Assembly (NCBI GenBank): GCA_035544875.1 | Contig: DASZZP010000083.1 | Coordinates: 384,219-448,218 of the forward strand | DNA: 64,000 nucleotides | From: Thermoanaerobaculia bacterium | GTDB taxonomy: Bacteria > Acidobacteriota > Thermoanaerobaculia > Multivoradales > UBA5704 | Direction of reading: 5' to 3' | Shown: positions 285 through 28,976 of the stretch, one piece after another | Layout: the number at the start of each line of letters is the position of its first letter | How positions within the stretch are numbered: position 1 is the first letter of the stretch | The notes under the pieces: model-generated | What the model was told of the DNA's origin: nothing | Database searches by the model: none | What the model saw: only the letters and a program-made list of their open reading frames with translations | Made by a program: the position numbers and the translations under genes

Positions 285-764
285 ATGAGAATCCAGCAAC
301 GCACGCTCTTGATTGGCATGGCTCTCGGCCTCGCCTTCGCCGCCGCGTCCCCGGGCGGCGCTGCGGAACTGTCCGCCCCATCGCCGGCGGCTGGCCCGGC
401 CGAGGTTCTCTTCCCTTGCGTGGCCGATGACACGACCATGTGCCTTAATCATGGCCGCTTCCGGACCACGGCCAACTTCCGCACCAACGAAGGGGTGACG
501 GGGGGAGCTCACGCGGTACCCTTGACCGACGACACGGGTTACTTCTGGTTTTTCAGCTCCAGCAACGTGGAGATCATCGTCAAGGTGCTCAACGGCTGCG
601 GCGTCAACCAGCATTACTGGGTGTTTGCCGGCGGCCTGACCAACGTCAACGTGATCATGAGAGTTGCCGATACGACGAACGAAGGGTTCACGCAGTACGA
701 CAACCGGCCGAATACGCCTTACCAGCCGGTGCAGGACACAACGGCTTTCCCCAACTGTCCCTAG
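285..764 (+). CDS. hypothetical secreted protein (159 aa) with N-terminal signal peptide
   Basis: ATG at 285. N-terminus MRIQQRTLLIGMALGLAFAAASPGGAA resembles a Sec signal peptide. Mature part is Thr/Asn-rich with 4 Cys. Composition is protein-like, unlike the overlapping antisense ORF 30..614. Confidence 0.45.
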   Translation: MRIQQRTLLIGMALGLAFAAASPGGAAELSAPSPAAGPAEVLFPCVADDTTMCLNHGRFRTTANFRTNEGVTGGAHAVPLTDDTGYFWFFSSSNVEIIVKVLNGCGVNQHYWVFAGGLTNVNVIMRVADTTNEGFTQYDNRPNTPYQPVQDTTAFPNCP

Positions 765-815
765 TGCCGTGTACCAGTTGAATCGCTAGCGATTCGGTGG
801 GATGTCGGGAAGGTC

Positions 816-1061
816 TCAGCGATTCGGCGGCGGGGCAGGCTTCGGGGCGGGGGTCGTGGCGGACGTTTCCTTGGCGAGGGCGTCCAGGCGCTGACGCATC
901 GCCTTCTCGCGCGCGCGAATAGCCGCCGTAATCGCGAGCTGCAGCTCGTTCGGCTGAGCCACCTCGGCGGGGGGTGGCGAGGCCGGCGGCAAGCCGAGCC
1001 GCTGGCGAACCCGCTGTCCGGCGGAAGGCTTCAGCGTGAGCGGCGCGAAGTAAGGAGCCAT
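816..1061 (-). CDS. small hypothetical protein (81 aa; Pro/Ala-rich ends, central helical segment)
   Basis: ATG (revcomp of cat at 1059-1061) in frame to the stop at 816. Sequence MAPYFAPLTLKPSAGQRV...LQLAITAAIRAREKAMRQRLDALAKE has ordinary composition. No recognisable family and the SD is weak. Confidence 0.2.
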   Translation of the reverse strand: MAPYFAPLTLKPSAGQRVRQRLGLPPASPPPAEVAQPNELQLAITAAIRAREKAMRQRLDALAKETSATTPAPKPAPPPNR

Positions 1062-1185
1062 CGCCCTGACACTTGGCCGGCGGCGGGTCTGGGTGGTGGA
1101 CTCGCCGCGGTTGCACTCGTTGTGCGGGCTGCCGTAACATCGCCTCAAAATTCGATCAGGCTGGCGCCGAGGAGGAGCCGCGCCG

Positions 1186-2013
1186 ATGAGCCAGGATATT
1201 TCCCGACGGGGTTTCGTGCGGCAGTCGCTCGGATGGACCGCGTCTCTGGTCTGGGGTCTCGACGCTTTCCAGGCGCTGGCCCAGAACGCGGTCGCACTCC
1301 TCAACTACCAAGGTCGCCTGACCGACGCCGCCGGTCTGCCGCGCACCGGCAGCGCCGCCATGACGTTTCGCATCGTCGACGCGGCTGGCAACCCGCTCGG
1401 CTGGGCGGAGACGCATCCGGCAGTACCGCTCGACAACGGCTTCTTCTCGGTGCAGCTCGGCAGCATCACGCCGCTGACGCCCGCGCTCTTCGCCGGCCCA
1501 CCCACCGACTCGTTCGGTCCCGTTCGCCACCTCGAGGTGACCATCGACGGGGAGACGCTGTTGCCCAACCTGCGCATCACGAGCGCCGCGTGGGCCATCG
1601 GCACCGTGGTTGGAGCCACCGGGCCAGCGGGGCCAAGTGGCACCGCCGGGGTGACGGGACCGACGGGGCCGATAGGCGCCACCGGTGCCGGACCCACCGG
1701 TGCCACGGGCCTGGGCGGAGCGACCGGACCGACAGGATCCTCGGGACCCGCCGGCGCCAGCGGACCGACCGGACCGAGCGGTTCGAGCGGCGCTCAAGGA
1801 CCCACCGGGCCCGCCGGGTCGACGGGACCCACCGGGCCGCAGGGCGCGTCGGGAGCCGCCGGAGCCTCCGGAGGTACCGGCCCCACCGGGCCGCAGGGCA
1901 CCTCCGGAACGACCGGTTCGACCGGTCCACAAGGGTCTACCGGGCCAACGGGCCCGATCGGATCGACCGGGCCGGGGTTTGGCGCCACGGGAGCCACCGG
2001 ACCGGGTCCCTAG
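1186..2013 (+). CDS. collagen-like triple-helix repeat protein with twin-arginine-type signal (275 aa)
   Basis: GGAGGAG SD at 1170-1176 and ATG at 1186. N-terminus [24 protein letters not shown] is a Tat-like RRxFV motif. The C-terminal ~150 aa are uninterrupted Gly-X-Y triplets (GPTGP, GATGP, GSTGP and similar). Confidence 0.75.
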
Positions 2014-2047
2014 CCGGGGCGACGCGGTGCTCCCCCGGATCGCCAGG

Positions 2048-2734
2048 ATGGGTGGCCTGCCAGCAGCCCTGGGTGTTTTCACCCTGATGGCAGGCTTCGG
2101 CTCTCGCGGGCTCCTCGCGCAGAACGTCGTCGTCGAGACCCCCGCACTCACCTCGGGCGGCGGCCTCGCCACCTCGGCCAGCCATCGGCTCTGGAGCTGC
2201 CTCTCCCACGACCCCTCGGGCACGGCGGCGAGCTCCTCGTTCCGCGTACGCGTGGGTTGCGGCGCGGCGCTGGCTGGCGGCGTCATCGTCACCAAGGCGC
2301 CCACCAGCCTCTCCGCCCAAGCGACCCCGTCGTCGGCCCCGGTCGGCGGGAGCATCGCCGATCAAGCCACGCTCTCGGGCGGCGATCGACCCACCGGCAC
2401 GATCACCTTCAACCTCTTCGCCCCTGGCGACACGGGCTGCGCGAGCTCGATCTTCACCTCGACGAAGTCCGTGAGCGGCGATGGCACCTACACCTCCGAC
2501 TCCTTCGCGGCTTTGACTCCAGGCACCTACCGGTGGATCGCGAGCTATAGCGGCGACGCCAACAACCTCGCGGCTGGGCCGACCGTGTGCAGCGATCCGG
2601 TGCAGGCGGCCGTCGTCACTGGGTTCACCGCGGCGATTCCGACGCTCGATCCCCGCGGCCTGGCTCTGCTCGTCCTGCTGCTGGCCGCGGCCGGGCTTCT
2701 CATCGCACGTCGCGCGCCGCTGCCGCCGCGGTGA
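2048..2734 (+). CDS. cell-surface protein with C-terminal IPTL-CTERM sorting domain (228 aa)
   Basis: ATG at 2048, in frame with ORF 1685..2734. N-terminal hydrophobic signal (MGGLPAALGVFTLMAGFGSRGLLAQ). Ser/Thr/Gly-rich body. C-terminus ...AAIPTLDPRGLALLVLLLAAAGLLIARRAPLPPR has an IPTL motif, a TM helix and a basic tail, which is the IPTL-CTERM architecture (TIGR04174-like). Confidence 0.65.
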   Translation: MGGLPAALGVFTLMAGFGSRGLLAQNVVVETPALTSGGGLATSASHRLWSCLSHDPSGTAASSSFRVRVGCGAALAGGVIVTKAPTSLSAQATPSSAPVGGSIADQATLSGGDRPTGTITFNLFAPGDTGCASSIFTSTKSVSGDGTYTSDSFAALTPGTYRWIASYSGDANNLAAGPTVCSDPVQAAVVTGFTAAIPTLDPRGLALLVLLLAAAGLLIARRAPLPPR

Positions 2735-2748
2735 GCCCCGCCGCCAGC

Positions 2749-5700
2749 ATGCCGCGAACAGCCCAGCCTGGCGACCGGCGGCCGACGATCTGCCTGTCGA
2801 TGATCGTGCGCGACGAGGCGCACATCGTCACCGAGGCGCTCGCCTGCCTGGCGCCTCATCTCGACTATTGGGTCGTGGTCGACACCGGCTCGACCGACGC
2901 CACCCGTGACGTGGTGCGCGACTTCTTCGGCGACCGCGGCATCCCCGGCGAGCTCCACGAGCGCCCCTGGCGCGACTTCGGTGCCAACCGCACCGAGGCG
3001 CTCGAGCTGGCGCGCGGCAAGGCCGACTATCTATGGGTCTTCGACGCCGACGACCTGCTGCGCGGCACGCCCGACCTCACCGAGCTCACCCACGACGCCT
3101 ACTCTCTGCGCTTCGACGGCGACCTGCGCTACTGGCGTCCCTTGCTGTTCCGCTCCGACCGCGCCTGGCGCTTCGTCGGCGAGCTGCACGAGTACGCCCA
3201 GTGCGCCGATGGGCCGGCGACCATCGCCAGGCTCGCCGGGGATCACGCGGCCGAGTCGCGCCGGCTCGGCGCGCGCAACCGGCCGGCGGACAAGTACGAT
3301 CGCGACGCCGCGGTGTTCGCCGCCGCGGTGGCGCGCGACCCCAACGACACCCGCAGCCTCTTCTACCTCGCGCAGAGCCACCAGGACGCCGGGCGGCTGC
3401 GCGAGGCGCGGGCCCTCTACGAACGACGCGCCGCCCTCGGCGGCTGGGGCGAGGAGGTCTACGTCGCCCTGCTGCGCGCCGCGCGCTGCCGGCGCGACCT
3501 CGGCCGGCCGTGGCCGCAGCTTCTGCCGGCGTTCCTCGCTGCCTGGTCGGCGCGCCCGACGCGCGCCGAGGCGCTGGTCGACCTGGCCGCCGTCGCCCGA
3601 CTCGCCGGGCGCTGGCCGGAGGCGCACCTGTTCGCCAGCCGGGCGGCGGCGATTCCGGATCCGGTCGACGACGAGCTGTTCGTCGAGCCGGCCGCCTATG
3701 CCTGGCGGGCCCTCGACGAGCTGGCGATCGCCGCGTACTACCTCGGCGACCTCGAGGAGTCGTTCCGCATCAACAGCGAGCTGCTGGCCCGCTCGCGGCT
3801 GCCCGAGCGCGAGCGCGGGCGCATCGAGAGCAACCGCGACTTCTCGGTGCCGCGGGTCAAGGACTCCAGGCTGCAGCACGACGCGGCGATCGTTAGGCGC
3901 ATCCTGGCGCGGTCGCGCGCGACCGCTCCTCGGGTCACCCTCACCATCACCAGCTGCCGGCGGCGGGACCTCTTCGAGAAGACGGTGTGCTCTTTCCTCA
4001 ACGCCTGTACCGACCTCGACCTGATCGACCGCTGGCTCTGCGTCGACGACGGCTCGAGCCCCGAAGACCGCCGCGAGATGCAGCGGCTCTTCCCCTTCTT
4101 CGAGTACGTCTGGAAGGGACCCGAGGAGCGCGGCCACGCGCGCAGCATGAACATCATCCGCGGCGCCGTGCGTACCCCCTTCCTCGTCCACCTCGAGGAC
4201 GATTGGCATTTCTTCGAGCGCCGCGACTACGTCGGGCCGGCGATCCGCATCCTCGAACGCGAGCCCGAGCTCGGCCAGGTCCTCTTCAACCGCAACTACG
4301 CCGAGGTGCTCGCGGACCGCGACATTCCCGGCGGGCAGCTGCGGGTGTCGCCGGCGGGCGATCGCTACGTCGTGCACGAGCACCACGACCCGGGCTCGGA
4401 GTTGTATCGCCGCCTGGCGGAGGTCCATCGGCGGCCCTCCAACGTCTACTGGCCCCACTACTCGCTCCGCCCCTCGCTGCTGCGCGCCACCGTCTTCGAG
4501 CGGGTGGGCCCCTTCGACGAGCAAGCCTCCCACTTCGAGCTCGACTACGCGCGCCGCTACGTCCACGCGCGCCTCTCCTCGGCCTTCTTCGACGGCGTCA
4601 ACTGCCTGCACATCGGCAGGCTCACCAGCGAGCGCGACGATACGGCAAAGCCGAATGCCTACGGGCTCAACGGCATGCCACGGTTCGACGACCGGCCGAT
4701 ACGCGTGCAGCTGCTCGCCAACTGGTGCACCAGCGAAGAGCTCTGCCGCATGTGGGAGAAGATGTCGCGCGGCGGCGGCCGCTGGGGACGGCTGGAGGTC
4801 ACGGCCGGCGGCGATGTCGACTTCCATGCGGTGATCAACGCCGCGCCGCCCGGGGCCGCGGTCGACCCGGCGCGGACGATCGTCTTCCACATGGAGCCGC
4901 GCAGCACCATCGCATCGATGCCCGCCGAGTGGCGCGATCCGGATCCGGCGCGTTTCCTCCAGGTGCGCAGCCACGCCGCCTTCCCCAACGTCTGCGAGTG
5001 GCACCTCGGTCCGACCTACGACGAGCTCTGCGCGCTGCCGATCGAGAAGACCCGGACCCTCTCCACCGTCACCTCCTCGCTCCACTTCTGTCCCGGCCAT
5101 CGGGCACGGATCGCCTTCATCAAGCACCTCGAGGCGAACGGCGTGCCGATCGACGTCTACGGCTGGAGCAACCATCACGGCTTCGCCGGTTACCGCGGAG
5201 CGTTGCCGCGGATGTGCAAGGACGCGGGCCTGTTCCCCTATCGCTACACCTTCGCAGCGGAGAACCACTGGGAAAGGAACTACTTCACCGAGAAGATCGT
5301 CGACGCGATCCTCGCCGAGTGCCTCTGCTTCTACTCGGGTTGCCCGAACCTCGCCGGCCACCTCGACCCGGCGGCCTACGTGGCCCTCGACCTCGACGAC
5401 TTCGCAGCGGCGGCCCGCACCATCGAGACGACGATCGCCAACGGCGAGTGGGAGAAGCGGCTCGACGCCATCCGGCGCGAAAAGCGGCGGATCCTCGACC
5501 AGCTCCAGTTCTTCCCCACTTTGGAGCGGATCGTCGTCGCGGCGCAGGCGGGGATGCCGTTGCCGACGTGCGACGCCGAGGATCTGGACGTCGTCCTGAT
5601 CAACCTCGATCGCCGGCCCGATCGCCTCGCCGCGTTTCGCGCGCAGGCGGAGCGCAGCGGGCTCTCCTACCGGCGGGTCGCAGCGGTCGACGGTCAGGCC

Positions 5701-6246
5701 ATCGCGCTCACCGCCGAGATCCGCCAGCTCTTCCGCGACAACGACTTCGGCTACCGCCGCAGCGTCGTCGGCTGCGCCCTCAGTCACCTCGGCGTCTGGC
5801 GAGCGGTCCGCCGGCCGACGCTGGTGCTCGAAGACGACGTCGAGCTCGCGGAGGCCTTCGTCCCGGGCCTGCGCTCGATCCTGGAGCAGGCCCGCAGCAC
5901 CGACCCTGACTGGGACCTCGTCTTCCTCGGGTACACCCCCTGGGAGGCACGCTTCGCCGAGCCGCCGCGCGAAGGGGGCGATCCGCGCCTGCAGCCCATG
6001 GGCTGGCTCGACTACATGGGCGGCTTGTTCGGCTACCTGGTGTCGCCCGCGGGAGCGCGCAAGCTGGTCGACCAGGCCACCACCGGCGGCATCCGCCACG
6101 GCATCGACCGCTTCGTCCATCACTCCGACCGCGGGCTGCGGGTCTACAGCGCCCTGCCGAGCATCGCGTTCTCGCCGTGCGCCCGGCTCGACGGCCAGGG
6201 CGACACCGACATCCAGCGCGACTTCACCCCGCTCGCGCCGGACTGA
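2749..6246 (+). CDS. multidomain glycosyltransferase (1166 aa): GT2 - TPR-like - GT2 - GT10-like (alpha-1,3-fucosyltransferase motif) - GT25-like
   Basis: ATG at 2749, in frame with ORF 2587..6246. GT2 signatures: ICLSMIVRDEAHIV...VVDTGSTD...DADD, and a second one VTLTITSCRRRDLFEKT...CVDDGSSPED. FucT-type motif YTFAAENHWERNYFTEKIVDA (FENS...Y.TEK). GT25-like C-terminus VVLINLDRRPDRLAAFRAQ...VVGCALSHLGVW...LEDD. TPR-like Ala/Leu-rich region lies between the first two modules. Confidence 0.8.
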   Translation: MPRTAQPGDRRPTICLSMIVRDEAHIVTEALACLAPHLDYWVVVDTGSTDATRDVVRDFFGDRGIPGELHERPWRDFGANRTEALELARGKADYLWVFDADDLLRGTPDLTELTHDAYSLRFDGDLRYWRPLLFRSDRAWRFVGELHEYAQCADGPATIARLAGDHAAESRRLGARNRPADKYDRDAAVFAAAVARDPNDTRSLFYLAQSHQDAGRLREARALYERRAALGGWGEEVYVALLRAARCRRDLGRPWPQLLPAFLAAWSARPTRAEALVDLAAVARLAGRWPEAHLFASRAAAIPDPVDDELFVEPAAYAWRALDELAIAAYYLGDLEESFRINSELLARSRLPERERGRIESNRDFSVPRVKDSRLQHDAAIVRRILARSRATAPRVTLTITSCRRRDLFEKTVCSFLNACTDLDLIDRWLCVDDGSSPEDRREMQRLFPFFEYVWKGPEERGHARSMNIIRGAVRTPFLVHLEDDWHFFERRDYVGPAIRILEREPELGQVLFNRNYAEVLADRDIPGGQLRVSPAGDRYVVHEHHDPGSELYRRLAEVHRRPSNVYWPHYSLRPSLLRATVFERVGPFDEQASHFELDYARRYVHARLSSAFFDGVNCLHIGRLTSERDDTAKPNAYGLNGMPRFDDRPIRVQLLANWCTSEELCRMWEKMSRGGGRWGRLEVTAGGDVDFHAVINAAPPGAAVDPARTIVFHMEPRSTIASMPAEWRDPDPARFLQVRSHAAFPNVCEWHLGPTYDELCALPIEKTRTLSTVTSSLHFCPGHRARIAFIKHLEANGVPIDVYGWSNHHGFAGYRGALPRMCKDAGLFPYRYTFAAENHWERNYFTEKIVDAILAECLCFYSGCPNLAGHLDPAAYVALDLDDFAAAARTIETTIANGEWEKRLDAIRREKRRILDQLQFFPTLERIVVAAQAGMPLPTCDAEDLDVVLINLDRRPDRLAAFRAQAERSGLSYRRVAAVDGQAIALTAEIRQLFRDNDFGYRRSVVGCALSHLGVWRAVRRPTLVLEDDVELAEAFVPGLRSILEQARSTDPDWDLVFLGYTPWEARFAEPPREGGDPRLQPMGWLDYMGGLFGYLVSPAGARKLVDQATTGGIRHGIDRFVHHSDRGLRVYSALPSIAFSPCARLDGQGDTDIQRDFTPLAPD

Positions 6247-6270
6247 TCACGGTGGGCGGCCTCCGGGCAG

Positions 6271-8802
6271 TCAGGTCGCGAAGGCCATCGCCAGCAGCGT
6301 CGCCTGCTCCAGGGCGTGGGCCTTGGCCGAGCCGGTGGCGGGGCTGCCGGCGGCGTGCCGGCGGACCGAGCGCACCGGGTGGCCGGCCAGGCGCTCGAGC
6401 CGCGGATGGACATAGAACAGGGCACCCATGTTGGCCGGCTCCTCCTGCACCCAGACGAGATCGTGGCAGGCGGGATGGCGGGCCAGCTCGGCGGCGATTT
6501 CACTCTTCGGGAACGGGTAGAGCTGGTCGATGGCGATGATTGCCGTCGTCGTCGCGGTCGCTGTCGTGGCAGCGGTCGCCGTGGTCGCCGCGCCAGCCGG
6601 GCCGCGCCGCCGCGCCCGCTCCCGGCGCAGCTCGTGGGCGATCTTGCCGCTGCAGAACAGCAGCCGCTGCGCGTTTTCCACCGCGGGGTCCGGGATGACG
6701 TTCAGGAAACGCTCGCGGCTGAGCTCTGCGAGCGGCGACGACGAATCGCGGTGGCGCAGCATGCTCTTGGGCGTCATCACCACCAGTGGCTTGCGCCAGG
6801 GGCGCAGCGCCTGCCGCCGCAGGAGGTGGAAGTACTGCGCCGCGGTCGACGGCTGGCAGACCTGGATGTTGTCCTCGGCGGCGAGCTGCAGGAAGCGCTC
6901 GAGGCGCGCGCTGGAATGCTCCGGGCCCTGGCCTTCGTAGCCGTGCGGGAGGAGCAGGACCAGCCCCGAGAGCAGGTTCCACTTGCCCTCGCTGGCGGCG
7001 ATGAACTGGTCGATGATGATCTGCGCGCCGTTGGCGAAATCGCCGAACTGCGCCTCCCAGAGGACCAGGGCGTCAGGGTAATCGCGGCTGTAGCCGTACT
7101 CGAAACCGAGCACCGCCGCCTCCGAGAGCATCGAATCGTAGATCTCGAAGCGCGCCTGGCCGGCGGCCACGTGCGCGAGCGGCGTGTGCTCGCCGCCGGT
7201 CTCGACGTCGATCAGCACGGCGTGGCGCTGGGCGAAGGTGCCGCGCCGGGTGTCCTGCCCGCTCATCCGCACCGGCACCCCCTGGCGGACCAGCGAGGCG
7301 AAGGCCAGCGCCTCGGCCATGCCATAGTCGAGCGGCCGCTTGCCGTGCCCCATCTCGGCGCGCTCCGCGAGCAGGGCCTTGATCTTCTTGTGCACCGCGA
7401 AGCTCTGCGGCCAGCTGGTCAGCGGCGCGGTCAGCTCGCCGAGCGTCTCGGCAGGCAGGCCGGTCGCGACCTCGTACTCGGGTTTGAACGGACCCCCCTT
7501 ATAGGGGTCCCAGTACGCCGGCAGGGTGCGCAGCGACGCGCGCTTCTCGAGCCCCTTGGCCTCGCCCTGGGCGGCGTCGAGCTCGGCGCGCACCACCGCC
7601 TCGCGCCGCTCGGCCTCGTCGTCGGCCAGGCCGATCCGCTGGGCGTAGATCTTCCACAGCGGCGGATGCGCCTCGATCTTCTTGTAGAGCAGCGGCTGGG
7701 TGATGGTCGGATCGTCGACTTCGCTGTGGCCGTAGCGGCGGAAGCCGATCAGATCGACGACCACGTCGGAATGAAAGGCGTAGCGGTAATCGACCGCCAT
7801 CGCCGCCACCCGCGCCACCGCCTCCGGGTCCTCGGCGTTGACGTGAAAGATGGGGATCGGCAGGCGCTTGGCGATGTCGGAGGCGAAGCGCGAGGATTGC
7901 AGGCTCGCCGGCTCGGTGGTGAAGCCGATCATGTTGTTGACGATGACGTGCACGGTGCCGCCGACCCGGTAGCCGGGGAGCTCGGCCAGGTTGAGCGTCT
8001 CGGCCAGCACCCCCTGGCCGGCGAAGGCGGCGTCGCCGTGCAGCACGATCGGCATCACCAGGGTGCGGTCGCGGTCGCCGAGCCGCACCTGCTTGGCGCG
8101 CACGCGGCCGACCGCCACCGGGTCGACGGCTTCGAGATGGCTCGGGTTCGACACCAGGTGGAGGTCGATCTCGCGGCCGTTTCGCGCCCTGAAGGTGCCG
8201 GTCGCGCCCATGTGATACTTGACGTCGCCGCCCCCCAGCACGCTGCGCGGATCGACGTCCTCGAAGCCGGCGAAGATCTGCGCCGCCGGGCGCCCGACGA
8301 CGTTGACCATCACCGCGAGCCGGCCGCGGTGGCTCATCGCCAGCACCACCTGTCTGGCCTCGTGCGCCGCGGCGCTCTCGAGCATCTCGGTGAGCAGCGG
8401 GATGAGCGCAACGACGCCCTCGATCGAGAACCGCTTGCTCCCCAGGTAACGCGTCTGGACCAGGGTCTCGAAGGTCTCGGCGCGCAGGATCTCATCGAAG
8501 ATACGCTGCCGGTCCGGCTCTCCTGGCGCCGGCGCCTCCATGCGCTCGCCGAGCCAGCGCCGCCGCTCGGCGGCCGGGATGTGCATGAACTCGACGCCGA
8601 TCGTTCCGCAGTAGACCCGGCGGGCGAAGGCCGCGGTCTCCGCGTCGGCCAGCTCGGCGAGCGCCGGCTGCGGCTCGGCGGCGAGCCGGCGCAGCGGATC
8701 GAGGTCGGCCTGCAGGAAGCCCAACCGGCGAAAGGCGTTCAGCGTCTTCTGATCGAGCTTGCCGCGGGGCTCCGCGACGGCGGTGGCGATCTCGGTGGTC
8801 AT
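6271..8802 (-). CDS. sucA: 2-oxoglutarate dehydrogenase E1 component
   Basis: Start MTTEIATAV is the revcomp of cat at 8800-8802. ORF 6271..9327 shows strong OGDH E1 similarity throughout (ThDP-binding GDAAFAGQG, transketolase-like C-terminus). The upstream in-frame extension is non-coding because it runs into the intergenic repeat. Confidence 0.9.
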   Translation of the reverse strand: MTTEIATAVAEPRGKLDQKTLNAFRRLGFLQADLDPLRRLAAEPQPALAELADAETAAFARRVYCGTIGVEFMHIPAAERRRWLGERMEAPAPGEPDRQRIFDEILRAETFETLVQTRYLGSKRFSIEGVVALIPLLTEMLESAAAHEARQVVLAMSHRGRLAVMVNVVGRPAAQIFAGFEDVDPRSVLGGGDVKYHMGATGTFRARNGREIDLHLVSNPSHLEAVDPVAVGRVRAKQVRLGDRDRTLVMPIVLHGDAAFAGQGVLAETLNLAELPGYRVGGTVHVIVNNMIGFTTEPASLQSSRFASDIAKRLPIPIFHVNAEDPEAVARVAAMAVDYRYAFHSDVVVDLIGFRRYGHSEVDDPTITQPLLYKKIEAHPPLWKIYAQRIGLADDEAERREAVVRAELDAAQGEAKGLEKRASLRTLPAYWDPYKGGPFKPEYEVATGLPAETLGELTAPLTSWPQSFAVHKKIKALLAERAEMGHGKRPLDYGMAEALAFASLVRQGVPVRMSGQDTRRGTFAQRHAVLIDVETGGEHTPLAHVAAGQARFEIYDSMLSEAAVLGFEYGYSRDYPDALVLWEAQFGDFANGAQIIIDQFIAASEGKWNLLSGLVLLLPHGYEGQGPEHSSARLERFLQLAAEDNIQVCQPSTAAQYFHLLRRQALRPWRKPLVVMTPKSMLRHRDSSSPLAELSRERFLNVIPDPAVENAQRLLFCSGKIAHELRRERARRRGPAGAATTATAATTATATTTAIIAIDQLYPFPKSEIAAELARHPACHDLVWVQEEPANMGALFYVHPRLERLAGHPVRSVRRHAAGSPATGSAKAHALEQATLLAMAFAT

Positions 8803-9175: not shown

Positions 9176-9272
9176 CTTATCCTTCGGGATCGTAACCGCC
9201 GGTGGGGACTAGATCGATTCAGACAGGGGAGCTGGCCGCCCCGCTCGGCCGCGCCCCGGAGGAAGCTTCGCC

Positions 9273-11984
9273 ATGACCGTGACCTCCGCCAAGTCCGCGC
9301 CCGCGCTGGCGCTCCTCGCCGCCACACTCTTGCTGGCGGCGGTGCCCGCGATCCTCGGGGGGCGCTCCGTGCTGGCTCTGCCGACGCCGGTCAACCTGGG
9401 ACCGTCGCCGTTCGAGCCGGCCTCGACGGGAGGCGCCGCGACGCTCGACCGGGCGCTCGCCAAGCTCTCGACCCACAAGCGGCTGCTGGTGATCGGCGCC
9501 CATCCCGACGACGAGGACACGTCGCTGCTGGCCCTGGTGGCGCGCGGCATGGGGGGTGAGGCCGCCTACCTTTCGCTCTCCCGCGGCGAGGGCGGGCAGG
9601 ACCTGATCGGGCCCGAGCTCGGGGTCGGGCTGGGGTTGATCCGCAGCCGCGAGTTGCTGGCCGCCCGCGCCATCGACGGCGGGCGCCAGTTCTTCAGCCG
9701 CGCCTACGACTTCGGCTTCACCATGTCGCTCGAGGAGACGCTCGGGCAGTGGCCGAAGGAGGTGCTGGTCGAGGATACGATCCGCGTCATGCGGCGCTTC
9801 AAGCCGCAGGTCGTGGTCTCGATCTTTCCGGGCGTGCCGGTCAAGACCCACGGCCAGCACCAGGCCTCCGGCATCGCGGCGTTCGCGGCCTTCCCGCTGG
9901 CCGGCGACGCCAGCGCCCTGCCGCAGCTGCGCGCCGAGGGGCTGGCGCCCTGGGCGCCGCAGGCGCTCTTCCGCAAGACCTGGTTCGACCCCCAGGCGAC
10001 GACGCTCAAGCTGCCGCTCGGCGGCATCGATCCGTGGAGCGGCAAGTCGGCCTTCCAGCTCGCCATGGCCAGCCGCGGCATGCACCGCTCGCAGGGCATG
10101 GGCTTGACGCAGGAGCTGGGGGCCAAGGACTCCGCGCTCGGCTGGGTCTCGGGCGGCGCCGGGGCGGCGGCGAAGGACCTCTTCGACGGCATCGACACCC
10201 ATCTGCGGGCGATCGCCCGGCCGCTCGCCGACCCGGTGCTGCGGTCGCGAGTAGCGGCGGAGCTCGAGGCCGTCGAGGGGCTCGCCGTGCGCGCCCGGGC
10301 GACGCTCAACCCGGAGCGGCCGGAGGCGCTGGTGCCCGACCTGGTGGAGGCCGTACGGCACCTGCGCGCCGCGGCGGCGCTGCTCGCGCCAGCGGGCGGG
10401 CGCCCCGACCAGAAGCCGGTGGCCGAGCTGATCGCCGAGAAGCTGGAGGTGGCCGAGATCGCCCTGGCCAGCGCCGCCGGCGTCGCGCTCGACGCCACGA
10501 CGCCGCGCGAGGCGCTGGTCGCCGGCGAGTCGTTCCCGGTCGCCGCGACCCTCTGGAACAGCGGCAGCCGGACGCTCGCCGCGGTCGCGGTCACCCTGGC
10601 CCCCGCGCCGGAGTGGCACGGCGAGCCGGTCGCCGGGGAGGCCAAGGAGCTGGCGCAGGGAGGGCTGCAGAAATGGGAGCTCAAGGCGGTGGTGCCGGCG
10701 GCGGCGCCGCCGACCATGCCCTATTTCCTGCGCCTGCCGCTCTCCGGCGGCCTCTACGACTGGAGTGCGGCGGCCGCCGGAGAGCGCGGCGAGCCGTTCG
10801 GGCCGCCGCCGCTGATCGCGCGCTTCAACTTCAGCCTCGACGGCGTCCCGGTCACCCTCGAGCGCGAGGTGGTGCATCTTCACCGCAACGAGGTGCTGGG
10901 GGAGGTCCGCCGGCCGCTGCGGGTGGTGCCGCTGGTCGAGGTGGCGGTCGCCGAGAGCGTGCAGATCTGGCCGCTCAGCCGGCATGAGCCGCGCGGCGTG
11001 CGAGTGGTGGTGACCTCGCACGCCAAGGCCGCTCTGCGCGGCCGCCTGGAAGTCGCCTCGGCGCCGGCCGCCGGCGGCGCGGCATGGCCCGCGGTGCCGC
11101 CCCGGTCGTTCGAGATCCCGGCTCCCGACCCCGCCGCCGACGAGGCGGAGGGCGAGCAGCTGGCGCTGCCCCTGACCCTGCAGCCGCCGGCTGCGCTGGC
11201 CCCGGGCCGCTACCCGCTGCGCCTGGCCGCGGTGCTCGAGGACGGCGCCCGTTTCGACCTCGCGGTGCCGGTCATCGACTATGCCCACATCCACCCGACC
11301 CCCAACCCGCGCCACGCGGCCGTCGAGGTCACCGCCACCGACCTCAAGCTGCCGCCGCTCGAGCGGGTCGGCTATGTGCGCGGCGTTTCCGACGAGGTGC
11401 CGGAGTTCTTGCGCCAGGCGGGAGTGCCGCTCGAGCTGCTCGGCCCGGGCGAGCTGGCGGGCGCCGATCTCACCCGCTACGACGCCATCGTGATCGGCAG
11501 CCGCGCCTACGAGAGCGAGCCGGCGCTGGCGCGCTTCAACCATCGCCTGCTCGACTACGTGCGGGGCGGCGGGCTGATGATCGTCCAGTACCAGCAGTAT
11601 GCCTTCATCGAGAGCGGCTTCGCGCCGTTCAAGCTCGAGATCGCCCGCCCGCACGACCGGGTGACCGATGAGACCGCCGCGGTCACCCTGCTCGACCTCG
11701 CCGACCCGGTGTTCAGCACGCCGAACAGGATCGCCGAAGCCGACTGGCAGGGTTGGGTGCAGGAGCGCGGCCTCTACTTCGCCCACAGCTGGGACCCGGC
11801 CTACAAGCCGCTCCTCGCCATGGCCGATCCCGGCGGGCCGCAGCAGCGCGGCGCGCTCCTGGCGGCGGCCTACGGCAAGGGCAAGTACGTCTACACCGGC
11901 CTCGCCCTCTTCCGCCAGCTCCCCGCCGGCGTGCCCGGCGCCTACCGCCTGTTCGCCAACCTGCTCGCGCTCGGGAGGAAGTAG
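9273..11984 (+). CDS. secreted PIG-L/LmbE-family N-acetylglucosaminyl deacetylase with large C-terminal extension (903 aa)
   Basis: GGAGGA SD precedes ATG 9273. Signal peptide present. PIG-L motif LLVIGAHPDDEDTSL plus downstream HGQHQASG. C-terminal ~200 aa (DAIVIGSRAYESEPAL...GGGLMIVQYQ) resemble a ThuA/class-I-glutamine-amidotransferase-like fold. Confidence 0.8.
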   Translation: MTVTSAKSAPALALLAATLLLAAVPAILGGRSVLALPTPVNLGPSPFEPASTGGAATLDRALAKLSTHKRLLVIGAHPDDEDTSLLALVARGMGGEAAYLSLSRGEGGQDLIGPELGVGLGLIRSRELLAARAIDGGRQFFSRAYDFGFTMSLEETLGQWPKEVLVEDTIRVMRRFKPQVVVSIFPGVPVKTHGQHQASGIAAFAAFPLAGDASALPQLRAEGLAPWAPQALFRKTWFDPQATTLKLPLGGIDPWSGKSAFQLAMASRGMHRSQGMGLTQELGAKDSALGWVSGGAGAAAKDLFDGIDTHLRAIARPLADPVLRSRVAAELEAVEGLAVRARATLNPERPEALVPDLVEAVRHLRAAAALLAPAGGRPDQKPVAELIAEKLEVAEIALASAAGVALDATTPREALVAGESFPVAATLWNSGSRTLAAVAVTLAPAPEWHGEPVAGEAKELAQGGLQKWELKAVVPAAAPPTMPYFLRLPLSGGLYDWSAAAAGERGEPFGPPPLIARFNFSLDGVPVTLEREVVHLHRNEVLGEVRRPLRVVPLVEVAVAESVQIWPLSRHEPRGVRVVVTSHAKAALRGRLEVASAPAAGGAAWPAVPPRSFEIPAPDPAADEAEGEQLALPLTLQPPAALAPGRYPLRLAAVLEDGARFDLAVPVIDYAHIHPTPNPRHAAVEVTATDLKLPPLERVGYVRGVSDEVPEFLRQAGVPLELLGPGELAGADLTRYDAIVIGSRAYESEPALARFNHRLLDYVRGGGLMIVQYQQYAFIESGFAPFKLEIARPHDRVTDETAAVTLLDLADPVFSTPNRIAEADWQGWVQERGLYFAHSWDPAYKPLLAMADPGGPQQRGALLAAAYGKGKYVYTGLALFRQLPAGVPGAYRLFANLLALGRK

Positions 11985-25621: not shown

Positions 25622-27354
<1,733 letters not shown>

Positions 27355-27362
27355 CCCGTACC

Positions 27363-28976
27363 TTGCGCCATCCGGCCAGCGCGGGACGCGGCGCCTTCCT
27401 CGCGGCCCTACTTCTCTTTACCGCCCTGGCTCTGTTCGGCCAGCGCTATCACTGGGTGGAAGAGGCCGGGACCGCCGAGCGGGACGGCTATGTCGAGCAA
27501 GCCGAGCAGCTGCTCCACGGCTCGCTGCCGCGCGATCCGTTTCGGCCCCTGCTCTATCCGATCCTCGCCGCCGGGCTCGCCAAGGTGACTGGCGATCCCT
27601 TTGCCGCGGCGCGGCTGCTGTCGAATCTGGCTGCCGCCGCCCTGGCCTGGCTGGCCTACGCGCACGGGCGGCGGCTGGCCGGACCGGCCGCGGGCGACTG
27701 GGCGATGGCGCTTGCCGCCGCCAATCCCAATCTGTGGATCATCGGCCAGCACACGACCACCGACATGTTGTTCGCGGCGTTCGCCGCCGGCGCTCTGCTC
27801 GCCGGTCTCGCCTATCTGGAAGCGGCCGATTGGCAAGCGGCGCTGGCCGCCGGTCTCGCGCTCGGCCTTGCCGCTTTCACGCGCGCCAACTCCCTTTTCC
27901 TGGTGCCCGCGCTGCTGCTCGCCTGGTGGCTGGCCCCCGGCGCCCGGCGCCGCCGCCTGGGGCATCTGGCGGCGGCGGTGATCGCGTGGGCGGCCGTGCT
28001 GCTCCCGCACTGGATGCTGCGGGCGCGGCTCTTCGGCGACCCCTTCTACGACGAGAACTGGAAGAACCTGGCGTTCAAGCTGCACGGCTTCCCCGACTGG
28101 TCCTATCTCGCGCGAGTGCCCTACCGGGGAGCGCTCGAGATCCTGGCCGAGAGTCCCGGCGCGGTCCTGCGCGGCGGCATCGCGGAGCTCTGGCGGTTCG
28201 CGATCGGGGGCGGCGCCGCGCAGCTGCTCGGCACCTGGGCGCACGTCGCGCTGTTTGCGGCCGGGGCGTTGTGGGCTTTGCACTACCGCCGCCACCCGGC
28301 CGCCTGGCTGCTGCTGGCGGGAGGCATCTTTCTCGCCGCAACCGCCTTCGCCTTCTTCGCCTGGGGCCGGTTCCTGCTGCTCCTGCTGCCGCCCGCCTAT
28401 GCCCTCGCCTTCGCGCCCATGGCCGCCGTGCCCCCTGGCTCCGCGCCCGCCGCGCCCGCCGGCAGCCCGCCGAAGGAGACGGCGCCCGAGGAGACCGCGC
28501 CCGCCAGACCGCCCGCGCTCGGCCAGCGACGCCTGCGAATGCTGATGACCGCGGTGGCGCTGGCGGCAGTCGCGGGGCTCGCGGTCAAGACCTTCGCCTT
28601 CCGCCTGCCAGCTTTCATCGCCCGCCACCCCTACGTCGAAGTCGCGACGCTGCGCCAGCTCGACCGCGCCCTGCCGCCCGGCGCCGCGCTCGGCGGCACC
28701 TCCCCCTTTCTCGGCCGCTACCTGCACGACCGCCGCTATCTAGCGCTGCCCGATGCCTTCGGACCCGAGATCGCCCAGCCCGAGCTCTACTTCGAGCACC
28801 TGCACCGCCTGCTGCAGTCCTCGCGAGTCGCCTACCTGGTGATCGGCGCCGTCGATCTGCGAGACCGCCCGCCGTCCCTCGCCGCCGCACCTCCCGCTCC
28901 TTCGCCCGCCCCCTGGCTAATCCGAGCCGCCGCCGGCCGCGGCGCCACCGTCTGGCGAGTCGCCTTGCAGCCATGA
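27363..28976 (+). CDS. integral-membrane glycosyltransferase, PMT/ArnT (GT39/GT83-like) family
   Basis: Multi-TM N-terminal half with a loop RDPFRPLLYP typical of the DxD/E loop of Dol-P/undecaprenyl-P sugar transferases. Ala-rich TM helices and a C-terminal soluble domain. TTG start at 27363. Confidence 0.65.
   Translation: MRHPASAGRGAFLAALLLFTALALFGQRYHWVEEAGTAERDGYVEQAEQLLHGSLPRDPFRPLLYPILAAGLAKVTGDPFAAARLLSNLAAAALAWLAYAHGRRLAGPAAGDWAMALAAANPNLWIIGQHTTTDMLFAAFAAGALLAGLAYLEAADWQAALAAGLALGLAAFTRANSLFLVPALLLAWWLAPGARRRRLGHLAAAVIAWAAVLLPHWMLRARLFGDPFYDENWKNLAFKLHGFPDWSYLARVPYRGALEILAESPGAVLRGGIAELWRFAIGGGAAQLLGTWAHVALFAAGALWALHYRRHPAAWLLLAGGIFLAATAFAFFAWGRFLLLLLPPAYALAFAPMAAVPPGSAPAAPAGSPPKETAPEETAPARPPALGQRRLRMLMTAVALAAVAGLAVKTFAFRLPAFIARHPYVEVATLRQLDRALPPGAALGGTSPFLGRYLHDRRYLALPDAFGPEIAQPELYFEHLHRLLQSSRVAYLVIGAVDLRDRPPSLAAAPPAPSPAPWLIRAAAGRGATVWRVALQP

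Follow-up and report, generated by a model that had tools for sequence, protein, structure and literature searches.

A candidate collagen O-glycosylation enzyme with four glycosyltransferase modules encoded beside a collagen-like protein gene in a Thermoanaerobaculia bacterium

RESULTS

Three consecutive genes at the locus

We analyzed a stretch of 64,000 nucleotides (64 kb; hereafter, the window) from a Thermoanaerobaculia bacterium (Acidobacteriota; assembly GCA_035544875.1, contig DASZZP010000083.1, positions 384,219 to 448,218). Three genes lie on its forward strand, separated by gaps of 34 and 14 nt: the gene of a collagen-like protein of 275 amino acids (aa) identified by its open reading frame (ORF), Gly-X-Y runs and homology (1186..2013, +), that of a secreted Ig-like (Big_3_5) protein with an IPTL-CTERM sorting signal (2048..2734, +), and that of a large glycosyltransferase (GT) with four modules (2749..6246, +), which is the main subject of this work. 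The same order is found in two related loci, L008 and L019.

The glycosyltransferase is encoded by a single ORF of 1165 aa, uninterrupted from the ATG at 2749 to the TGA at 6244-6246 (+). Its third-position GC content is 0.91, matching that of the real genes of this window of ~70% GC; long ORFs in other frames or on the other strand, e.g., 3031-6123 (-), were set aside as artefacts of the high GC. The ATG at 2749 is the only workable start, because the homologues align from residue ~11. Two analyses of the protein rest on homologues: an AlphaFold2 model of the whole chain, built on 42 of them, and a survey of conservation among 42 full-length homologues of 41-57% identity, to which all statements on invariance below refer. 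The model has a mean predicted local distance difference test (pLDDT) score of 89.4 and was used to set the boundaries of the modules, which we call M1 to M4. A low-confidence linker (aa 936-944) separates M3 from M4.

A first-pass annotation, made from the sequence alone, had described this protein as four glycosyltransferase modules fused with a spacer resembling tetratricopeptide repeats (TPR). The Pfam matches (GT2, TPR, GT10 and GT25), the model and the intact ORF bear out this architecture. All the motifs quoted in support of it are found at the expected places in the translation: VVDTGSTD (aa 43-50), DADD (aa 99-102), CVDDGSSPED (aa 431-440), the fucosyltransferase-type motif FAAENHWERNYFTEKIVDA (aa 835-853), LINLDRRPDRL (aa 949-959) and LEDD (aa 1027-1030). 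The candidate catalytic motifs of the four modules (DxD or EDD, and donor binding), including those of the middle and C-terminal ones, are invariant or nearly so, and hence no module looks degenerate. Neither of the two outcomes that the annotation named as counterevidence, an interrupted ORF or degenerate middle and C-terminal modules, was seen. The protein lacks both a signal peptide and a membrane segment: its highest hydropathy over 19 aa is 1.36, too low for a membrane span. Lacking such a hydrophobic segment, the enzyme must work in the cytoplasm, the site of nucleotide-sugar synthesis.

The N-terminal GT domain and the TPR-like domain resemble enzymes acting on polypeptides

M1 (2788..3273, +; aa 14-175) is a GT-A domain of the GT2 type. 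It matches PF00535 (Glycos_transf_2) with 51.6 bits in the whole protein and 40 bits when the segment is searched alone, for a cut-off of 23.3. Three of its motifs are invariant, DTGS.D at 45-50, DADD at 99-102 and H147-E148, and the blocks of the model over aa 11-170 have pLDDT values of 85-97. It is followed by an all-helical TPR-like domain (3292..3909, +; aa 182-387), with 11 helices in the model and matches to several TPR families of Pfam at aa 186-227 (e.g., TPR_17 at 29.3 bits).

When the whole model was searched with Foldseek, the top structural matches were SunS and ThuS (8e-14, 387-398 columns aligned). By sequence, M1 matches SunS at 0.014 and the N-terminal domain of GmaR at 2.4e-5. 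GmaR, in which a TPR domain follows the GT domain, adds N-acetylglucosamine (GlcNAc) to flagellin (PMC9638930). The SunS equivalog model of NCBIfam (TIGR04195) scores 16.8 bits for a cut-off of 350, so far below it that the protein is not a SunS orthologue; the resemblance is one of fold and architecture. By analogy with these enzymes, we propose that M1 could be an initiating protein O-glycosyltransferase, with the TPR-like domain probably serving to recognize the protein substrate.

Three further modules: a divergent GT-A, a GT10-like and a GT25 domain

M2 (3934..4668, +; aa 396-640) had also been assigned to GT2. It is indeed a glycosyltransferase by fold, since the segment modelled alone gives a clear GT-A domain with a pLDDT of 92.6, but its membership in GT2 at the level of Pfam does not hold: alone, it reaches 16.3 bits against PF00535, under the cut-off of 23.3. 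Its structural matches include ppGalNAc-T2 (1.8e-10), SpsA (6.7e-10) and K4CP, at ~1e-10 to 1e-9 and with template modeling (TM) scores of ~0.6. A profile of M2 compared with the sequences of PDB has a sole match, the N-terminal GT-A domain of TagF, at an E value of 0.007. The residues D433 and S436 (in DDGS 433-436), H481, and E483-D484-D485 (H481-x-EDD) are invariant, the EDD being the putative acidic metal-binding motif that follows beta-4 in GT-A domains.

M3 (4699..5553, +; aa 651-935) resembles alpha-1,3-fucosyltransferases of family GT10, as its motif had suggested. It exceeds the cut-off of PF00852 (Glyco_transf_10; 23.9) by a small margin, with 25.3 bits in the whole protein and 28.7 bits for the segment, and its profile matches Helicobacter pylori FucT (1.9e-11), plant FucTA (6.9e-11) and FUT9 (3.5e-4). 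Y845, E848 and K849 (YVTEK) align with Y246, E249 and K250 of FucT, which, together with R195, we take to be donor-binding residues. E838-N839 aligns with FEN, and R787 with an Arg that is conserved in FucTA and FUT9. E838 is invariant, while Y845, T847, E848 and K849 are nearly so; N839 and R787, too, are invariant or nearly so. The model of M3 has two Rossmann-like halves. The PDB alignments span the C-terminal, nucleotide-binding half only, and that half alone is recognizably GT10; the N-terminal half (aa 651-760) is a beta/alpha domain in the model, and no match to the GT10 N-terminal family of Pfam was found in M3 at E <= 10. M3 would probably transfer a 6-deoxy-L-hexose (e.g., fucose or rhamnose) with inversion. 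Its donor could be other than GDP-fucose, since the L-rhamnosyltransferase A064R-D2 of PBCV-1 reportedly has a homologue in Pithovirus that bears the annotation of a GT10 fucosyltransferase (PMC9614988). No genes of the GDP-fucose pathway were seen in the window, where most ORFs were scanned.

M4 (5587..6243, +; aa 947-1165) is a GT25 domain of GT-A fold, which matches PF01755 (Glyco_transf_25; cut-off 24) with 46.5 bits in the whole protein and 52.7 bits for the segment. Its sequence matches those of Mimivirus R655 (9crz; 1.8e-19) and human COLGALT1 (~1e-12), and Foldseek superposes it on R655 with a root mean square deviation of 2.5 Å. The first-pass annotation had called this module "GT25/LicD-like"; the first half of that label is well founded, but no LicD-like match appeared and we dropped the second. 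LVLEDD at 1025-1030 aligns with LVFEDD of COLGALT1, and N952, R955, R956, R959, H1013 and E1028-D1029-D1030 are invariant. In COLGALT1, Glu435-Asp436-Asp437 binds Mn2+, and mutagenesis shows that it is the catalytic site (PMC12003778). In the mechanism proposed below, M4 would depend on Mn2+ and on a UDP-sugar.

A collagen-like protein gene is a conserved neighbor

The protein encoded at 1186-2013 has a twin-arginine motif (SRRGFV), an N-terminal domain of ~110 aa and, after it, ~44 Gly-X-Y triplets. These triplets contain 24 Thr, 14 Ser and 0 Lys, and in the absence of Lys the Thr and Ser residues are the only hydroxyl acceptors of the collagen region. A ribosome-binding site, GAGGAGGAG, lies upstream of the ATG of the gene. 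The N-terminal domain is homologous to that of the collagen-like proteins of L019 (1.9e-34) and L008 (2.5e-22), and collagen-like adhesin models of NCBIfam match the protein below their cut-offs. There is also a weak match (9e-8, 32 bits for a cut-off of 60) between positions 1267-1482 (aa 28-99) and NF053851, which describes the N-terminal domain of Bdellovibrio fibre proteins called "mosaic adhesive trimer"; such a match fits a trimeric surface fibre.

The first four metagenome relatives of the enzyme that we examined each have a collagen-like gene beside it. We then searched the DNA up to 2.5 kb away from the enzyme gene at 22 multi-module loci, of which the window is one, for runs of 12 or more Gly-X-Y triplets. 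Such runs were found in 17 of the 22, with a Y position that is mostly 40-90% Thr. The other five lie on contigs that end, on one or both sides, within 1 kb of the gene, so that all 17 informative loci are positive, and 248 kb of distal flanks contained a single run of this kind. These loci come from Actinomycetota, Binatia, a deltaproteobacterial metagenome-assembled genome (MAG) and Solirubrobacterales, and their other flanking genes vary from one to the next. In three actinobacterial loci (L003, L004 and L005), the collagen-like gene is directly adjacent to that of the enzyme, with no intervening gene. This conserved neighborhood gives strong support to the collagen-like protein as the acceptor, a candidate that the first-pass annotation had put forward.

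These collagen-like proteins also share a putative export signal. Among the 17 proteins encoded beside multi-module enzymes, 16 have [ST]RRx[FILMVAW] with a hydrophobic stretch after it, the remaining one lacking its N terminus; none of the eight encoded beside enzymes of one or two modules does. This suggests that the former are exported by the twin-arginine translocation (Tat) system, already folded and glycosylated.

A large and modular family shared with giant viruses

The protein is well beyond a chance finding: one search retrieved 717 homologues, an exhaustive one 4177 clusters at 50% identity (E <= 1e-30), and a scan of one genome per species at least 547 relatives. Where databases name these proteins, they use either the generic "glycosyltransferase" or [quoted passage not shown]. 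In the full-text literature we found no description of this architecture or of multi-domain glycosyltransferases tied to collagen-like proteins. The first-pass annotation had regarded bacterial GT10 modules as uncommon outside Helicobacter and Bacteroides; on the contrary, the module is present in hundreds of proteins of environmental bacteria and giant viruses.

Hidden Markov models of each module, built from the alignment of 42 sequences and run on all the loci that we fetched, revealed a diversity of architectures. The order seen in the window, M1-TPR-M2-M3-M4, is that of bacteria. There are also proteins with M1-TPR-M2-M4 and a separate M3 gene downstream, plain M1-TPR-M2-M4 and M1-TPR-M2-TPR-M4 proteins, M1-TPR-M2 proteins (in mycobacteria, Acidovorax and Ottowia), and M1-TPR proteins of ~370 aa, which are found in Streptomyces and others, often beside collagen-like genes. 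M3 is absent from L015, L018, L019 and L022, and other variants lack both M3 and M4. Stand-alone genes were found for M3 (L016, L017 and L020) and for M2 (L008 and L019). Every architecture contains M1-TPR and no other part is constant: M2, M3 and M4 were gained, lost, split off or permuted. The constancy of M1-TPR fits an initiating enzyme to which extension modules were added.

The two-module proteins of Mycobacterium and Mycolicibacterium (L029-L067) have ~560-620 aa and sometimes occur as tandem copies. At one of these loci (L030; 9995-11686, 12644-15133, -), the converging neighbor is a glycine-rich PGRS-like protein of 829 aa with GGT and GAT/GAQ triplets, which hints at a related class of substrates. 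At the other end of the range, relatives of ~1400-2030 aa (e.g., P0002, 1689 aa, in its residues 1-520) have an additional N-terminal GT10-like copy and a further domain. This further domain is listed as PF27674, and the number of modules would thus reach up to six per protein. A nucleotidyltransferase-like domain, NTP_transf_5 (PF14907), is fused to some relatives or encoded beside them (L001, 6729-8671, -; P0033; P0040), and L001 also has a faint match to ScmC.

The family extends to giant viruses. Among predicted viral structures, the best match is a Harvfovirus protein (E value of 7e-68, 34% identity over 656 columns), and 538 relatives are present in IMG/VR, most of them in bins of giant viruses whose GC content is 19-50%. 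The giant-virus relatives encode the four modules in one ORF in the order M1-TPR-M2-M4-M3, sometimes with M4 doubled; two examples among the loci L086-L165 are L087 (1899-7289) and L092 (9995-15352). In several of these loci, genes with Gly-X-Thr repeats (GYT, GFT or GAT) lie no more than 10 kb away. We rejected a viral origin of the window itself, given its 70% GC, its housekeeping genes and an enolase with 100% identity to the one in a Thermoanaerobaculia MAG.

Other genes of the window

The gene between those of the collagen-like protein and the enzyme (2048-2734, +) encodes a protein with 25.2 bits for TIGR04174 (cut-off 20.5), which, together with the Pfam matches to Big_3_5 and IPTL-CTERM, defines it as a secreted Ig-like protein with that sorting signal. 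A secreted, C-terminally anchored protein is encoded at the same place in L008 and L019, with weak sequence similarity (E value of 0.001). We considered the possibility that the collagen-like and IPTL-CTERM ORFs were one frameshifted gene and rejected it, since both have a start codon and a signal peptide of their own and since the two-gene arrangement recurs in L008 and L019. The IPTL-CTERM protein is possibly a partner or an anchor of the fibre. A scan of 700-6600 for promoters and terminators found nothing, which says nothing about operon structure.

Upstream of the collagen-like gene, an ORF of 159 aa (285-764, +) has a clear signal peptide and several Cys but no family match, and we found no counterpart in related loci. 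Downstream, the glycosyltransferase gene converges with sucA; the other neighbors encode a PIG-L deacetylase and transporters. The PIG-L protein (9213-11984, +; 923 aa), of the GlcNAc-PI de-N-acetylase type and with a weak NPCBM-associated domain, lies beyond sucA and diverges from it; it could conceivably act as a sugar deacetylase on an N-acetylhexosamine (HexNAc) glycan. A second glycosyltransferase of the window, unrelated to the first, is a membrane protein of ~697 aa (26886-28976, +) with a PMT_2 domain (GT-C, ArnT/PMT-like).

DISCUSSION

A proposed route for the glycosylation of a collagen-like fibre

We propose, with a probability of about 0.6, that this enzyme O-glycosylates the neighboring collagen-like protein before its export by Tat. 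It would be a soluble, cytoplasmic and modular protein glycosyltransferase whose substrate is encoded two genes upstream. M1 and the TPR-like domain would act first, recognizing the Gly-X-Thr/Ser repeats and attaching one sugar to Thr or Ser. This sugar would probably be a beta-linked HexNAc from a UDP-sugar, by analogy with GmaR and with SgtA of Clostridioides difficile (see below). M2 (GT-A), M3 (GT10-like) and M4 (GT25) would then extend it into an oligosaccharide of up to four residues. The glycosylated, folded and probably trimeric fibre would be exported by Tat and may be displayed with the IPTL-CTERM protein. The first-pass annotation had imagined four catalytic modules building a tetrasaccharide; in our view this would be the upper bound of what the enzyme could do. 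The architecture, the folds, the homologies, the conservation of motifs and of the neighborhood, the Tat-type motifs and the lack of an export signal in the enzyme are observations, whereas we infer the acceptor, the order in which the modules act, the donors, the length of the glycan and the export of the glycoprotein by Tat.

A number of observations weigh against this proposal. The adjacency of two genes does not prove that one encodes the enzyme and the other its substrate. Among the giant-virus loci, collagen-like genes are present within 10 kb in 11 of 80 and are usually not adjacent, and the mycobacterial M1-TPR-M2 clade mostly lacks classical collagen-like neighbors. The curated Tat model TIGR01409 reaches 15.3 bits, for a cut-off of 16.7, in one of the collagen-like proteins and matches none of the others, that of the window included; hence, the suggestion of export by Tat rests on the motif search. 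No genes for the biosynthesis of nucleotide sugars were seen in the 64-kb window (most ORFs were scanned), the rest of which is housekeeping, and the donors are therefore left unconstrained. Finally, conserved motifs do not guarantee catalysis, as illustrated by COLGALT1. This enzyme has two GT-A domains that both bind metal and UDP-galactose; only the GT25 domain is catalytic, the GT1 domain being structural (PMC12003778).

This last precedent is the core of one alternative, in which only some of the modules are catalytic, the others being structural, donor-binding or lectin-like, and the product is shorter than a tetrasaccharide. The position of M2 below the threshold of GT2 in Pfam and the natural variants lacking M3, or M3 and M4, would fit it. 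The metal- and donor-binding motifs are nevertheless invariant or nearly so in all four modules, and the stand-alone module genes and the permuted order of the giant viruses are what one expects of autonomous enzymes rather than of scaffolds. We regard such partial catalysis as a minority possibility, to be taken seriously since it is compatible with glycosylation of the collagen-like protein.

Two other explanations would change the acceptor, and we find both improbable. Bacterial members of GT25 are known as galactosyltransferases of lipooligosaccharide or lipopolysaccharide (LPS), and the enzyme could thus be a polysaccharide, LPS or capsule multi-enzyme acting on a lipid or sugar primer, with the collagen-like gene as a coincidental neighbor. 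The names of relatives in the source annotations, as GT25 enzymes of LPS biosynthesis, go in this direction, as do two further matches in Foldseek, the chondroitin polymerase K4CP with its two GT-A domains (8e-10) and the capsule multi-enzyme 8qoy (1e-8). Yet there are no polysaccharide export, flippase, polymerase or lipid-carrier genes nearby, the enzyme has no signal for membrane association, the best structural matches of M1-TPR are peptide and protein glycosyltransferases, and the collagen-like gene is adjacent in 17 of 17 informative loci across phyla, whereas the other flanking genes vary. The remaining candidate is a protein glycosyltransferase whose main acceptor is the IPTL-CTERM Ig-like protein, or several surface proteins. 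The gene of this protein is the immediate upstream neighbor, it has analogues in L008 and L019, and its product is rich in Ser and Thr. However, an equivalent gene is found in 3 loci only, with the weak similarity mentioned above, whereas the collagen-like gene is universal among the informative loci, including the three in which nothing intervenes. Because the equivalent gene is restricted to a subset of the loci, the IPTL-CTERM protein is the weaker acceptor candidate, and the collagen-like protein remains the one that we favor.

Implications

Collagen-like proteins occur widely among bacteria and giant viruses, and the route of their glycosylation is known for very few. Here, we have described a candidate machine for a whole pathway, from initiation to extension, encoded by one gene beside its likely substrate. 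What is new is the pairing with collagen-like proteins bearing a Tat-type signal and the link with giant viruses, which extend what is known of SgtA-type glycosylation and of multi-domain glycosyltransferases. If our proposal is true, it would provide a function for a large unannotated family (>4000 clusters at 50% identity) and a compact tool to produce defined glycosylated collagen-mimetic biomaterials. Beyond animals and Mimivirus, it would also give GT25 enzymes a link with collagen-like substrates, and one would have to ask if Tat can carry a glycosylated triple helix out of the cell.

One may speculate further, on ground where we are rather doubtful than confident, that a dedicated collagen-glycosylation toolkit is common to environmental bacteria of several phyla and to many giant viruses. 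A single cytoplasmic polypeptide would start and complete a defined oligosaccharide on the Thr of Gly-X-Thr, glycosylated Thr would replace hydroxyproline in the stabilization of the triple helix, Tat would export the folded fibre, and the GT25 module would be an ancient relative of animal collagen galactosylation.

Comparison with known systems

The individual modules have well-studied counterparts. M3 keeps the FEN-type Glu and Asn, the YxTEK motif and the upstream Arg of the GT10 enzymes FucT, FucTA and FUT9, but differs from them in that its N-terminal, acceptor half has no detectable GT10 signature and its Pfam score is marginal. M4 aligns over its full length with R655 and with the catalytic GT25 domain of COLGALT1 (GLT25D1), and the three share INLxRRxDR, GCxLSH and the Mn2+-binding EDD. 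All three are also linked to collagen-like proteins, this link being a proposal in the case of R655, a proposed collagen glycosyltransferase (PMC9546862). The human enzyme galactosylates hydroxylysine, an acceptor that we rejected for M4 because the repeats of the window protein lack Lys. Since in addition no lysyl hydroxylase was seen among the window genes scanned, the acceptor of M4 is more likely a sugar or Thr/Ser.

The fusion of several autonomous GT domains in one polypeptide, thought to build one glycan stepwise, has been described in giant viruses: A064R and A111/114R of PBCV-1, the latter with three GT activities, have been characterized, and four GT domains are predicted in R496 of Tupanvirus (PMC9614988). 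The chlorovirus enzymes differ in building N-glycans on a capsid protein, and they and R496 are likened to this family by description.

The N-terminal half of the enzyme has the build of SunS and ThuS, which are S-glycosyltransferases of glycocins, and of Listeria GmaR: an N-terminal GT-A domain of ~180 aa, then a helical or TPR domain, in enzymes with polypeptide acceptors. Those enzymes lack the additional modules M2 to M4, and no glycocin precursor or flagellin gene lies near the enzyme described here.

The closest parallel is SgtA of C. difficile, which we compared by its published description. It has 358 aa, with a GT-A domain (aa 1-260) and four TPRs, is encoded beside bclA3, and puts beta-O-GlcNAc on Thr in the GPT collagen repeats of BclA3, whose glycan contains sugars beyond the first GlcNAc that are added by enzymes not identified (PMC7157674). 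The enzyme of the window is fused to three further transferase modules where SgtA is not, its host is an uncultivated, non-sporulating bacterium, and its putative substrate is a protein with a Tat-type signal instead of an exosporium protein. In both cases, however, a cytoplasmic enzyme using nucleotide-sugar donors has a GT-A domain followed by TPRs and is encoded beside a Gly-Pro-Thr-rich collagen-like gene. The stand-alone M1-TPR relatives adjoining collagen-like genes in Streptomyces and others even have the size of SgtA. The comparison extends to the glycosylation of the BclA-type collagen-like proteins of the Bacillus exosporium.

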